Position numbers and translations under genes: made by a program. This document shows positions 36,268-41,882 of a stretch of 64,000 bases of DNA, piece by piece. Positions within the stretch are counted from its first letter, which is position 1; each line of letters opens with the position of its first letter. A model generated the notes under the pieces. It had not been told where the DNA came from. It saw nothing but the letters and a program-made list of their open reading frames with translations, and did no database searches. This stretch comes from a virus (lineage: Duplodnaviria > Caudoviricetes). The stretch is from positions 22,313-86,312 of the IMG/VR virus record IMGVR_UViG_3300014836_000320, one strand, 5' to 3'.

Positions 36268-36733
36268 CTACCAAGTTACTCCAAACCCATCCTGTAATGG
36301 ATTCGTCATCTGGTGATCCTTTTTGTATTATTTTTATATGGTGCCACCCGTCTCGTGTTTCAAGTATCTCAACTGTAGATCCTTCATACAGCACAGACAT
36401 GATTGGGTAACCCATTCCTGGACCAGTGCGTAGATTTGAATCTACAGAAATTTTACCAACTGCGGTATACTCGCGTTCTGTGGGGTTAACCATCGATTCA
36501 ATTTGTGCTGGTGTTGGTGTTGTTGCCATCGTCACAGATTTGACAACTTTTAATTCAATGGGCTCAACATCTTTCTTGACAGGAAGAGGTCTATGATTCT
36601 GGCAAGTGCTGATTCCGGGTTTATAAAACCAAACACAATTGTAAAAAAAGGAACCAACGTGGATGGAAGTCAGTAGCACAAATGCAAATGTCAAACAGGT
36701 GACAAAAAAAGGACTGTGCCCAAAACTAAGCAT
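36263..36733 (-). CDS. Membrane-anchored bacterial SH3 (SH3b) domain protein
   Basis: N-terminal hydrophobic helix; SNLRTGPG..GSTVEILETRDGWHHI..GWV. Confidence 0.75.
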   Translation of the reverse strand: MLSFGHSPFFVTCLTFAFVLLTSIHVGSFFYNCVWFYKPGISTCQNHRPLPVKKDVEPIELKVVKSVTMATTPTPAQIESMVNPTEREYTAVGKISVDSNLRTGPGMGYPIMSVLYEGSTVEILETRDGWHHIKIIQKGSPDDESITGWVWSNLVE

Positions 36734-36900
36734 CAATGTGCAACCATTTTTGGTAGATAAGGAACGGAACGAACTCCGTGTAGTTGTTGCAGGAGTTCAC
36801 GAGCCTGCTGGGCAGATTCGGCCATGACTCTGACTGTTTTTTCTTCTCCACCTGGTCCAGGTTGTCGGACTGTGGTTTCAAACATTTTTAAGTTTTTCAT
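36733..36900 (-). CDS. 55-aa small protein absent from the ORF track (MKNLKMFETTVRQPG...)
   Basis: Manual translation; TGATG coupling to the SH3b gene. Confidence 0.6.
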   Translation of the reverse strand: MKNLKMFETTVRQPGPGGEEKTVRVMAESAQQARELLQQLHGVRSVPYLPKMVAH

Positions 36901-36914
36901 TCTAGTATCATAAT

Positions 36915-37131
36915 AAAGTGCTCTGCGAACCCCGGTGGTAATTATACCGCATCAAGCGCCAGGAACCCCCAACACCATCACGCACGGCCTCCACCCACTC
37001 CCCGACGGGTTCCGTTAACGCATTGCCAGCGGCCTTTCGGTTCAAAGACTACCACCCGTGGCTATCACACCACTTCTCATCCTGCGGGTCACAGTATCTG
37101 CTGATTAGGCAGAACGTTCATTGCCAACTAG
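36915..37131 (-). ncRNA. Candidate structured non-coding RNA, about 200 nt, family unrecognised
   Basis: No ORF; 106/180 G+C over 36921-37100; nested long-range helices with G-U pairs on the - strand; GAAA tetraloop. Confidence 0.7.
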
Positions 37132-38337
37132 TTACCTACGATTGGCAGGCACATAATTGGCAGTAATGCCAAACGGTGCAGTGATATCTCTGCTACCATG
37201 CACAACAAACAAGGTATCGCAGTAGTCTGGATCACCCCAACTACCACAAGGATAGCCGTCTGTGAACATCACCAACTGGTGCGGATGGACTTCATTGTCC
37301 TTCATCCACTGCCATACACATTCAAATGCAGTTCCACCACCGCCTTGAATAGGATATTCGCTCATGTCGCGGCCATCATCGCTGGTGAATTCGTCTTCGT
37401 TGTAGACGCTGGTATCAAAGGTAATGATACGAACCTTGTAAGACGTAAACTGATCCAGCGAGCCTTGCACCATGCCCAAGAAGTCTGACAGCATGTCCTC
37501 GCCAATGGATCCAGAAGCGTCTAATGCAACCACAATGTCAAGTTCCTCGCCAGGCAGTTGACCGGGCAAGACTGCACCAGTGTGCCAGGCCTTACGATTA
37601 GGACGCATCCAGGTGTAGTCGCTTTTGAGCGAACCACTGAACTGAATACGAAGCAGATCCTTCAAGTCCATTACAGGTGCAGTAATGTCTTTGACCAAAC
37701 GCTGGATATCGCCTGGCACATTGCCGGCACCTGCATTCTTTGCGGCCTGAAGCACAGCCTCACGCCATTCGTCACGCAAGGCCTTCTTTTCTTCTTCAGT
37801 CAACGGCTTCATCTTAGGACGGCCCTTGCCATCCTTGCTGTCAGTGCCGTCGCCGTCACCTTCATCTTCACCGTCCCCATCAGGGTCCATGTGCATGTCC
37901 AAGGTCATCTTAATTTCTACAGCATTGGCCATGAGTTCGTCATAGACTTCGTCTGCGGTCTTGCCAGTGTATTTAGAGTCCAACAAGATTGGCACCGCTT
38001 GAATAGCACGGCCAATACCTTCACGGACCAACATGCCGTTGATCACATAGTCGCCAGCCATGTTCCAGACCTGCGGATTACGATCACCGCGGCGTGACAT
38101 GTGATCAAAAATAATGTGGCCAAGTTCGTGGCCAAAGCCAAAAATTAGTTCTTGCTCGTCAAGTTTTTGGATGAAGTCGGAATTGTAATAAAAAGACCTG
38201 CCGTCGGTGGCCAATGTAGGACACCAATCGCATTCTTCTAGTTTGAGTCGGGCGGCCAAAGGACCCCAGAAAGGATACTTCAGTAGCATAGCGACACGAG
38301 TCTTAATCAACTTATCGCGGGCGGACATCTTTGACAT
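37132..38337 (-). CDS. Metallopeptidase-like (HExxH) plus VWA domain protein, MoxR partner
   Basis: HELGH; acidic linker; VALDASGS MIDAS motif; AGGAG before MSKMS. Confidence 0.8.
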   Translation of the reverse strand: MSKMSARDKLIKTRVAMLLKYPFWGPLAARLKLEECDWCPTLATDGRSFYYNSDFIQKLDEQELIFGFGHELGHIIFDHMSRRGDRNPQVWNMAGDYVINGMLVREGIGRAIQAVPILLDSKYTGKTADEVYDELMANAVEIKMTLDMHMDPDGDGEDEGDGDGTDSKDGKGRPKMKPLTEEEKKALRDEWREAVLQAAKNAGAGNVPGDIQRLVKDITAPVMDLKDLLRIQFSGSLKSDYTWMRPNRKAWHTGAVLPGQLPGEELDIVVALDASGSIGEDMLSDFLGMVQGSLDQFTSYKVRIITFDTSVYNEDEFTSDDGRDMSEYPIQGGGGTAFECVWQWMKDNEVHPHQLVMFTDGYPCGSWGDPDYCDTLFVVHGSRDITAPFGITANYVPANRR

Positions 38338-38368
38338 GGTGGCTCCTATGTTTTCAGCGTATGTATCT

Positions 38369-38397
38369 ATTATAGTGCAATTTTGGATTAAGGTCAA
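38369..38397 (-). promoter_or_regulatory. sigma70 promoter
   Basis: TTGACC-N17-TATAAT. Confidence 0.75.
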
Positions 38398-38402
38398 CCA
38401 TT

Positions 38403-38690
38403 TTATTTTGGCCCACACAAGTCCCAAAGCATGGCAACTTGTGGGTCTCTGAACCAAATGGTTTTGCGTGGCACATAGTCCCAATCCAATCTTTTTAGGC
38501 CTTGATTTCTGGCCCACTCGGTAACTTCACGGATCGCTTGGCTCTGCCATGGGCGGGCAGACCAGCCCTTCCTTTGTTCGCGGAGCCACTCGCTGACATC
38601 GGATGGTGTTGGAGGCCGGTCTGCCCACTGACTGTGAACGTCTGGCCCATACAATTGCTCTACTATGGGCCATGGGCGTTCTCTATGCAT
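38403..38690 (-). CDS. Trp-rich hypothetical protein
   Basis: 95-aa ORF filling the gap between the AAA and VWA genes. Confidence 0.5.
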   Translation of the reverse strand: MHRERPWPIVEQLYGPDVHSQWADRPPTPSDVSEWLREQRKGWSARPWQSQAIREVTEWARNQGLKRLDWDYVPRKTIWFRDPQVAMLWDLCGPK

Positions 38691-38692
38691 AC

Positions 38693-39796
38693 TTACTCAT
38701 CTGTAAGCAGGTTGGCATACCGCTTGAAGAAATCAGGGAAGTTCTTCATCTTCTTGCGGTCAAATACCACCTTGTAATTCTTGAGCACGGTGTGAGCACC
38801 CATGATAACCATCTCGGGTTCAAAGTTCGCCATCATAAAGCCCAGCCAGTTATCGGCACTTTCATTGAACGTGTCAATCTTGCCAGAACGTTTGGCGTCT
38901 TCGTAGCGGCTACGAAGTTCGTAGCACAGGCTAGTGACCAGAGCGTAGCCTGCGGACACTTCCTTGGCACGGAACTCCTTGACCTTACCATTGAGCACAT
39001 CTGACGGGTCGGGCAAGTCTGCGGCATGCTTACGATGGGCCATAAACTTAATTGCCATACCTTCACCTACCAGACCAGCCACCATATCGGTGTTGGAAGA
39101 GTCAGGCAGGTTGTCATCCAGCATGTCAGACACGAAACTCCAGGTGCGCGGAGTAGCAAAGGCGCGGTCGTGTTGCACCGGATCAAAATTGTAGAGGTCG
39201 CCCTTGAACTGCTTCAGGAAACCCACCACATGCGGATGGATCTCATGGCCAAGAGCCCAGTGCTCCCAGTCTTCAAAGTCCACACGGATTTCCAAGTGCA
39301 TGAAGCGGTTAGCCAGTGGGCTAGGCATACGATAGGTAACACCCTTATCGCCCATACGGTTACCTGCGGCAATGATCACTACATTGTTGGGCAGAGTATA
39401 CTGGCCTACTTTGCGGTTGAGCACCAACTGATAGGCCGCGGCCTGAACAGCCGGCGGAGCAGAGTTCAACTCGTCCAAGAACAGGAACACAATGTCGTGT
39501 TCTTGTGCAAATTCTTTGCTGGGCAATTCTGAAGGGGTAGCCCACTTCATGGTATTGTCGCCTTGACTGTAGTAAGGCACACCTTTAATGTCTGTGGGAT
39601 CCATAAGGGCCATACGCAAGTCAATTACAGTAGAGTTAGGAAACTCACTGGCAACCTGGTTCACCATGTCGGACTTGCCAACACCGGGAGGACCCCAAAC
39701 AAATACCGGGCGGCGTTTTGCAACGGCACGGCGAAGAATAGGTTTGCACTCGCTAATCTTAACGGTGCGGGTTTCAACTTGACTACGATTTCCCAT
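38693..39796 (-). CDS. MoxR-like AAA+ ATPase
   Basis: GPPGVGKS, FLFLDE, AAGNR, PLANRF, TPRTW. Confidence 0.9.
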   Translation of the reverse strand: MGNRSQVETRTVKISECKPILRRAVAKRRPVFVWGPPGVGKSDMVNQVASEFPNSTVIDLRMALMDPTDIKGVPYYSQGDNTMKWATPSELPSKEFAQEHDIVFLFLDELNSAPPAVQAAAYQLVLNRKVGQYTLPNNVVIIAAGNRMGDKGVTYRMPSPLANRFMHLEIRVDFEDWEHWALGHEIHPHVVGFLKQFKGDLYNFDPVQHDRAFATPRTWSFVSDMLDDNLPDSSNTDMVAGLVGEGMAIKFMAHRKHAADLPDPSDVLNGKVKEFRAKEVSAGYALVTSLCYELRSRYEDAKRSGKIDTFNESADNWLGFMMANFEPEMVIMGAHTVLKNYKVVFDRKKMKNFPDFFKRYANLLTDE

Positions 39797-41003: not shown

Positions 41004-41882
41004 CTAGGTGGTAATAATCCTGATCTTATTGCGGTCTTGTTGACTGCGGCATTGATTCATGACACAGGCAAAATGGCTGGTGGGCGGTTGCCAGTCTGGG
41101 TCAAATACATTTCTAGGTTCGCTCCTGCCACCACACTGGCTGTAAGACACAAACCCTCGAGCATTGATCTGCATCCAGTCAACACCAGCATAACATGGCT
41201 TTCCTGTGTAGATAGGATCTGTTGAATTGACCGTTGCCAGGCTCACATAATTGGGATCTGCTTGACCTGGTTGCAAGGGCTCTGTGTTGTCCTGCCATAT
41301 ATCAGGACGGCCATAGATACGATTAACATCAACAAGATCGTATTCTCTGTGTGGTTCACCGTCTACACCACGCAACATCTGCTCTTGACATTGATAGCCA
41401 AGACTACGGAAACGTTGAACATGTTCTCTTGACTCTGTGATTGCACCAGGAGCCAATGGCACAGTGATGGCTATTTGTATATCTCTGCCTTGACTTTCTT
41501 CAAATATAAAATCAAACACCTCGTTGTTTTGCCAAGGATGGTAGGTCAGTTCCAAACGATCAATTAAACCCAGTATTGGATAGATTCCAAACCAAGTGTC
41601 ATCACCACTGGTTTCAAGACAGATGCTGGCAGGGCGTGACTTTATCTTTTTTAGTAAAGTGCTGAGATGAGGATAGTGTAAAGGTTCACCCCCTCCCAGC
41701 GTCCAGTGTATCTTGTTATGATGCTGATAGTGTGCCGCTTGTATTTTTTCAATGACTGTTAGATATTGCTCAACTGTTTTATCTAACGCACCATTTTTAA
41801 ATTCTGCTGGACAGTAACTACACTGAAATGTGCAGTAGCCATTGATAGTCCAAGCAACTTCTGAATGTGCCAACTCAATCAT
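41004..41882 (-). CDS. Radical SAM protein with C-terminal Cys-rich (SPASM/twitch-like) domain
   Basis: CTFQCSYC; GGEP; CYAG..CGG..C...C; TAAATA 5 nt upstream. Confidence 0.85.
   Translation of the reverse strand: MIELAHSEVAWTINGYCTFQCSYCPAEFKNGALDKTVEQYLTVIEKIQAAHYQHHNKIHWTLGGGEPLHYPHLSTLLKKIKSRPASICLETSGDDTWFGIYPILGLIDRLELTYHPWQNNEVFDFIFEESQGRDIQIAITVPLAPGAITESREHVQRFRSLGYQCQEQMLRGVDGEPHREYDLVDVNRIYGRPDIWQDNTEPLQPGQADPNYVSLATVNSTDPIYTGKPCYAGVDWMQINARGFVSYSQCGGRSEPRNVFDPDWQPPTSHFACVMNQCRSQQDRNKIRIITT

Follow-up and report, generated by a model that had tools for sequence, protein, structure and literature searches.

The stretch of DNA analysed here, referred to as the window, comprises 64,000 nucleotides of an 86-kb IMG/VR virus record to which CheckV assigns a completeness of 26%. 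On the minus strand of the window, the gene for a MoxR-type AAA ATPase (38693-39796, -) lies ahead of a gene for a DUF2201 metallopeptidase / VWA-like protein (37132-38517, -; Pfam PF13203, 7e-37, and PF09967, 1e-17), and PHROG 1314 and 1297 are the matches obtained at this gene pair. The gap that extends from the stop codon of the VWA gene (37132) to the start of a 55-aa open reading frame (start at 36900; 36733-36900, -) holds a real gene for a structured non-coding RNA of about 200 nt at 36915-37120 on the minus strand; the ends of this interval are approximate, and its core, as delimited by the covariance model R1 described below, is 36919-37096. The original prediction for this locus had proposed an unrecognised structured RNA of this size on this strand, within an ORF-free stretch having 59% G+C. 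There is no ORF of at least 60 aa inside the gap, the G+C content is 0.59 over 36919-37096, and the proposal of an RNA gene is upheld by the covariation of its homologues and by the lack of an Rfam match.

Downstream of the RNA, the 55-aa ORF represents a family of small proteins that also occurs inside the tRNA arrays of related phages, and it is accompanied on the same side by an SH3_3 protein. Upstream, the VWA gene has about 67% DNA identity with its counterparts in Asteriusvirus-like jumbo phages such as 121Q. A radical-SAM gene (41004-41882, -) is located upstream of MoxR in the window, while in relatives it directly follows either the VWA gene or the RNA, so the MoxR/VWA/radical-SAM module has been rearranged in the window lineage. 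The possibility that the RNA stretch is a remnant of a radical-SAM gene was ruled out, since tblastn reveals no likeness and that gene is present at 41004-41882. The copy of the RNA in the window is placed after the MoxR-VWA operon and outside any tRNA array; ARAGORN calls no tRNA gene in the window, and none in the 86-kb record either. A scan of the window for promoter-like and terminator-like sites on the minus strand yielded none between the VWA gene and the RNA, and none after the RNA.

Homologues and searches against known families

The minimum free energy fold of 36901-37131 on the minus strand has a z-score of -1.40, with 16 of 200 shuffled sequences being equally stable, and the corresponding fold on the plus strand has a z-score of -0.33. 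The fold of the single sequence is not significant, and the evidence beyond chance therefore rests on homologues.

Searches against known families return no relevant match: Rfam 15 yields none at the gathering score over the whole window, and only chance rows for snoRNAs and lncRNAs when E values up to 10 are admitted over 36700-37300. The RNA had been described as lacking the hallmarks of tRNA, tmRNA and RNase P RNA, and in agreement with this description there is no ARAGORN call and no relevant Rfam 15 match for any of these classes or for the known self-cleaving ribozymes. In a megablast and blastn comparison with 50,697 phage records, only the VWA coding part is matched, in Asteriusvirus-like jumbo phages. 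The R1 model finds no match in the full genomes of the cultured jumbo phages 121Q, Kaldavass and Vibrio 2.275.O, and a scan of 185,579 prokaryote genomes (596 Gb) with an invariant 18-mer from the element gives 16 matches, approximately the number expected by chance, none of which passes R1.

Homologues are abundant in IMG/VR. Among 44 contigs encoding relatives of the VWA protein, the element follows the VWA gene in three, with 95% identity in L002, 79% identity in L007, and a short derivative in L003/L004. The invariant 18-mer (ACCCGCAGGATGAGAAGT) has matches in 64 IMG/VR contigs, and two further motifs from the element have matches in more than 119 and more than 120 contigs, respectively. 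An nhmmer search of IMG/VR contigs retrieves 202 copies, of which 152 are unique. The covariance model R1 has 179 positions and was built from 47 homologues; the window copy, which is itself part of this seed, aligns to model positions 1-179 with 198.6 bits (E 4e-63), as a full-length member of a family whose copies score 125-200 bits. Scores nearly identical to that of the window copy are obtained for 95 sequences outside the seed. On the likeliest reading, this large and uncatalogued RNA family is restricted to one clade of uncultured jumbo phages, which have the MoxR / DUF2201-VWA / radical-SAM module in common.

Two variant forms were observed. A truncated derivative of about 70-100 nt occupies the post-VWA site in L003 (3001-3071) and L004 (4512-4570), where it scores 27.5 bits with R1; it retains the GGGUGGU strand, hairpins H2 and H2b and a short closing stem, and lacks Ha and the entire H4/H5 arm (these elements are defined below). 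This derivative could be a relic undergoing decay or else a minimal form of the RNA. In a separate subclass (L047, L053, L055, L060, L068, L071, L111 and L272), an insert of 60-70 nt with extra hairpins is found between J1/2 and H2.

Covariation-supported fold

The fold was derived from mutual information and pair counts across homologues, and its coordinates are given here on the minus strand of the window. Across 48 sequences, 96.3% of the cells are paired and 27 pairs are changed on both sides, compared with 36-47% of cells paired in slid controls. When 96 distinct sequences are considered, the paired fraction is 97.2%, with changes on both sides in 28 pairs and 603 cells; slid controls overall are 36-48% paired, and none of 500 shuffles attains the observed values of pairing or covariation. 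The strand is set by G-U pairs, as had been predicted: at one position G-U is preserved in 95 of 95 sequences, and at several pairs U-G is common.

The RNA has a branched fold, consisting of five local hairpins (H0, Ha, H1, H2 and H2b), a long 3' arm of nested helices H3, H4 and H5 that contains a kink-turn, and a pseudoknot. The 5' end carries the single-stranded motif AACGU (37114-37118), which most members have as ACGU or CCGU and which a few members lack. It is followed by H0 (UCUGC/GCAGA, 37113-37109 with 37101-37097, loop CUAAUCA), all five pairs of which change on both sides with 100% pairing, and by the 4-bp hairpin Ha (CUGU/GCAG, 37094-37091 with 37085-37082), which is also 100% paired and presents a near-invariant pentaloop, GACCC (37090-37086). 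Three of the four Ha pairs change on both sides (for example CG 65 / GC 26 at one position, and GC 64 / CG 23 / AU 7 at another). A conserved, unpaired junction, GAUGAGAA (37081-37074; family pattern GA-N2-5-GAAG), leads to H1 (GUGGU/GCCAC, 37073-37069 with 37062-37058, loop GUGAUA), at which up to four pair types occur per position, and then to the nearly invariant J1/2 strand GGGUGGU (37057-37051). H2 (GUCUUU/AAAGGC, 37049-37044 with 37037-37032) covaries, and its loop GAACCG contains a conserved ACC (37041-37039). The last of the local hairpins, H2b (CGC/GCG, 37031-37029 with 37021-37019), has the 7-nt loop UGGCAAU, and its third pair is C-G in 64 sequences and U-A in 30.

The outer helix of the 3' arm is H3 (GAACCC/GGGUUC, 37012-37007 with 36932-36927), in which six of six pairs change on both sides and pairing is 100%. 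The conserved, unpaired junction GUCGGGGA (37006-36999; GUCGGGRA in the family) connects it to H4 (GUGG/CCAC, 36998-36995 with 36938-36935), which is nested in H3 and has a variable pair (C-G 80 / U-A 8 / A-U 7) that is never broken; the internal-loop strand AUAAUUA (36945-36939) lies directly 5' of the 3' strand of H4, CCAC. The H5 arm (36946-36988) is in turn nested in H4, and its C-stem (36988-36983 with 36951-36946) is 98.6% paired, with four pairs changing on both sides. Above the C-stem is the kink-turn, which consists of the bulge CGU (36982-36980), the tandem G.A and A.G pairs of 36979-36978 with 36953-36952, and then a U.U pair; the tip of the arm is variable. The canonical stem, 3-nt bulge and tandem G.A pairs that define a kink-turn are recognizable by sequence alone in most members (GNNNNG-NNN-GAUGG / CUUGA-UNNNNU). 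Plain stems replace the kink-turn arm in L051, L080, L077, L078 and L084, and their tips can be read as GNRA loops. The molecule ends in the 3' tail GCAGAGCA (36919-36926), in which AGC is invariant. In all, about 60 positions are invariant or nearly so, and these are clustered in the junctions, with the variable arm at the periphery. A further helix, CGU/ACG (37116-37114 with 37015-37013), which would close the 5' domain, is tentative at most: it does not covary and is broken in one subclass.

This fold differs from the one originally proposed, a rod with bubbles that is essentially the thermodynamic fold of one sequence; the rod is wrong, since the covariation supports the multi-branched, pseudoknotted fold with its kink-turn arm. 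The five long-range helices on which the rod was based (CUGUGACCC/GGGUUCGCAG, GGUGGUAG/UUACCACC, CCGC/GCGG, GCGUUA/UGGCGC and GGAACCC/GGGUUCC) are 66.5% paired in 48 homologues, compared with 66.4% in shuffles, and have a covariation score of 0.086, compared with 0.087 in shuffles. Several strands have other partners: CUGU/GCAG closes the local 4-bp hairpin Ha; GGAACCC pairs with 36932-36927; and the partner of GCGG is 36987-36984. The pairing of GGUGGUAG with UUACCACC is possible in 97.9% of cells because both strands are conserved, but it was rejected as a helix or switch, since its variable position does not covary (U opposed by G in 35 sequences, A in 7 and U in 6). The actual partner of ACCACC is the middle GUGG (36998-36995), where the variable base pair is C-G in 35, U-A in 7 and A-U in 6; GGUGGUAG/UUACCACC could still form as a transient alternative pairing. 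The supposed side hairpin CC-GAAA-GG is part of H2, and what was taken for a G-rich apical region comprises a junction, one strand of a helix and an internal loop, with no apex. The one helix of the rod model that holds is the side hairpin GUGGU-GUGAUA-GCCAC (37073-37058), which covaries and is identical to H1.

The pseudoknot pairs ACCC of the Ha loop (37089-37086) with GGGU of J1/2 (37057-37054), and is 98.9% paired. An exact compensatory change, in which the loop reads GACAC and the strand GUGUGGU, is found in L247, L248 and L271; these three sequences are identical, and therefore represent one compensatory event. Elsewhere, the pairing includes a wobble in L254 and a mismatch in L272. The sequence support for the pseudoknot as a probable contact is thus positive but thin, amounting to one compensatory event, one wobble and one counter-example. 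A pairing between GGU of J1/2 (37053-37051) and ACC in the loop of H2 is proposed as well. In L144, L168 and L267, whose helices differ, a common triple change is observed (Ha loop GGUCCC, strand GGGCGGU, H2 loop AGCC), and, with one exception, the identity of the base that precedes GGGUGGU (C or A) goes together with that of the base preceding ACC in the H2 loop (A or U). Because of these co-ordinated changes, the Ha loop, J1/2 and the H2 loop probably meet in one core. An alternative in which the Ha loop would pair with GUCGGGG, a junction, was discarded, since the variable base of the junction changes without compensation.

Association with phage tRNA arrays

Most copies of the RNA lie among tRNA genes. 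Of the unique full-length copies, 114 of 126 have tRNAs within 3 kb, and all 1401 of the 1401 neighbouring tRNAs are on the strand of the RNA, with none on the opposite strand. The spacing is often tight: the CCA end of the preceding tRNA lies 0-4 nt from the ACGU motif in 72 of 102 cases, and the next tRNA starts 3-10 nt past the terminal ...AGCA in 49 of 107. The abutting tRNAs suggest where the RNA would begin and end throughout the family. Each of four complete or nearly complete genomes (332-364 kb) contains one copy of the RNA together with 23-30 tRNAs. The record from which locus L225 comes, with 524,565 bases, has arrays at about 115-126 kb and 417-426 kb on opposite strands, with 53 tRNAs and two copies of the RNA, one per array; either the phage is very large or the assembly has fused two genomes. 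All five of these sequences encode the VWA protein; the distance between its gene and the RNA is 15-20 kb in the four genomes of 332-364 kb and is much greater, for both copies, in the 524-kb record.

Approximately 10% of the family is found outside arrays. These copies start at the stop codon of a same-strand gene, which may encode a VWA protein, a radical-SAM protein, a methyltransferase or a small ORF; the window copy follows the VWA gene, as do those in L002, L007 and L073. In the L007 genome, the RNA follows the VWA gene and the tRNA array is elsewhere. Because some copies follow other genes, and because the array of L007 lies elsewhere, the RNA is not needed in cis for the tRNAs, and its relocations out of the array mark it as an independent gene rather than a spacer. 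The position between the VWA and SH3b genes is a lineage-specific relocation, and the family belongs to phage tRNA arrays. In one subgroup (L046, L058, L063, L067 and relatives), a conserved stretch (GCAUAUUGAAGCACAUUAAAGAUAGGGUCGUAG...) is found about 10-240 nt after the RNA and before the next called tRNA, and may be another small RNA or a tRNA missed by ARAGORN.

The family of the 55-aa ORF (36733-36900, -), whose members are about 49 aa long (for example L081:1771-1923, L086:1698-1850 and L067:9140-9289), is the only recurrent ORF beside the RNA. It was located in 29 of the loci that bear the RNA, where it invariably shares the strand of the tRNAs and as a rule follows the RNA at a distance of 10 nt to 10 kb, within the tRNA arrays; a single-sequence search finds it in one of five complete genomes. 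An AF2 model of the 55-aa protein has a pLDDT of 89 and a beta-beta-alpha-beta layout, and a Foldseek search with this model returned nothing significant. The family shows a weak likeness to the RNA polymerase inhibitor Gp2 of phage T7 (PF16857, E 0.095; PDB 2wnm, E 1.3; hhalign probability 49.5% over 37 columns). The ORF is described here as a neighbour, and as a candidate partner at most.

Proposed role and comparison with known systems

The reading to which roughly an even chance is assigned is that the gene specifies a structured RNA of about 205-215 nt that would be stable, act in trans and be released by host tRNA-processing nucleases. The RNA would be co-transcribed with its neighbours, as part of the tRNA polycistron in arrays and of the MoxR-VWA operon in the window, where it probably belongs to the operon transcript because no promoter or terminator separates them. 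Host RNase P, which cuts the next tRNA at its 5' end, would thereby generate the 3' end of the RNA, and an endonuclease together with trimming after the preceding CCA would generate the 5' end; we infer the ends, the stability and the abundance of the transcript. The compact core with its invariant junctions may then bind a partner (a protein, an RNA or a small ligand) that is tied to translation or to the metabolism of tRNAs in the infected cell. Such invariant junctions would be just as fitting for a ribozyme or for a ligand pocket.

A ribozyme, which was among the original suggestions, has a low but appreciable probability. In it, the junctions and the pseudoknot would form an active site that either cuts at the RNA's own borders, helping to free the tRNAs that flank it, or works in trans with tRNAs or other RNAs as substrates. 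The size and complexity of the RNA (a pseudoknot, about 60 near-invariant positions in junctions, a variable peripheral arm) would befit such an enzyme, and the ends of the RNA coincide with tRNA borders; however, there is no match to an Rfam ribozyme even at E values up to 10, the 3' border is already explained by host RNase P, and the distances involved are not constant (0-4 nt between CCA and the core, and 3-10 nt or much more between the core and the tRNA that follows it), so that exact self-cleavage at tRNA ends is unlikely. It is also conceivable, if unlikely, that the RNA is a new catalytic, ligand-sensing or tRNA-sensing RNA whose pseudoknotted core acts or reports on the 23-30 tRNAs of the phage, for example through its second invariant strand, GGGUGGA. 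This strand resembles the UGGN bulge of T-box RNAs, which pairs with the NCCA ends of tRNAs. If this were true, phages would be using RNA to control translation in a novel way while they take over the host.

That the RNA forms a self-assembling particle composed of RNA only, as a small analogue of ROOL and GOLLD, is quite improbable. It occupies the same genomic niche (PMC12286853), and some of its variable arm tips can be read as GNRA-type loops (GAAA, GUAA, GCAA), but it has 200 nt rather than 500-800 nt, it matches neither the ROOL nor the GOLLD model of Rfam, no conserved palindromic or mutually complementary loops were found, and the arm tips are not conserved. A cis-acting element, whether a processing or insulator module of the tRNA polycistron, a riboswitch-like leader or a promoter region, must be regarded as equally doubtful. 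The RNA always abuts same-strand neighbours, and a conserved TATAAT-like stretch lies at 36944-36939, 40 nt before the next start codon. Against this, no usable -35 partner for that stretch and no minus-strand promoter were found, and the compensatory changes include G-U pairs, which indicates that selection acts on the RNA and not on the DNA. A riboswitch or leader is disfavoured because the downstream neighbours vary (eleven tRNA identities, radical SAM, the 55-aa ORF and other small ORFs) and an expression platform is missing, as are a terminator and a sequestering helix; and a general processing module would be expected in more than one copy per 23-30 tRNAs. Of the functions originally suggested, a 6S-like RNA polymerase decoy and a CsrA/Rsm sponge have very little probability. 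The weak likeness of the 55-aa ORF family to T7 Gp2 (hhalign probability 49.5%) offers a hint from the neighbourhood only, whereas the decoy has no structural basis, because the supported fold is branched and pseudoknotted; the rod-like pairing scores like shuffles, and there is no Rfam match to 6S RNA at the gathering score or at E values up to 10. A CsrA/Rsm sponge requires many GGA motifs in hairpin loops. The RNA has no Rfam match to CsrB/RsmZ and a single conserved GGA, which is single-stranded (in CAGGAUG) and outside the hairpin loops GACCC, GUGAYA, AACC and UGGCAAU.

The proposed trans-acting RNA can be compared with other RNAs of phage tRNA islands. To our knowledge, no function has been assigned to rnaC and rnaD (species 1 and 2) of phage T4. 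Like the RNA described here, they are small stable non-tRNA RNAs that lie in a phage tRNA cluster, on the tRNA strand, and abut a tRNA (NC_000866 annotation). They are not homologous to it, the best R1 score in the T4 tRNA cluster with filters off being 3.4 bits (E about 1), and they are shorter, with 119 and 139 nt compared with about 205 nt, a pseudoknot and a kink-turn in the window RNA. In the T4 sequence, a segment of rnaC can be read as resembling a T arm, and the last bases of rnaD are CACCA. Phages and prophages also encode ROOL and GOLLD, frequently in the vicinity of tRNA islands, and these RNAs assemble into nanocages (PMC12286853); they differ in being cage-forming RNAs of 500-800 nt or more, while the RNA of the window has about 205 nt and is not matched by their Rfam models. 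A catalogue compiled from IMG/VR by Fremin et al. (2023) comprises 8,495 anonymous motifs of DNA viruses, some of them beside tRNAs (PMC10690425). The text of that article describes no motif with the features of the window RNA, which may be listed in the catalogue anonymously. At the level of building blocks, the H5 arm (36988-36975 with 36956-36946) shares the stem, 3-nt bulge, G.A/A.G pairs and U.U pair of the kink-turns of box C/D RNAs and several riboswitches, the difference being that the kink-turn here is a component of one peripheral arm, without the guide architecture of box C/D RNAs.

We know of no one who has established the function of T4 rnaC/rnaD, GOLLD or ROOL, all of which are elaborate RNAs of phage tRNA islands. 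To these, the present family adds a compact and very well constrained example with a strict stoichiometry, there being one copy per array of 23-30 tRNAs in complete genomes of 330-520 kb. Knowledge of its role could explain why giant phages invest in nearly complete sets of tRNAs. The family offers hundreds of natural variants with a clear secondary structure, and because the RNA is small it is more amenable to probing, cryo-EM, ligand screens and ribozyme assays than the classes of 600-800 nt.
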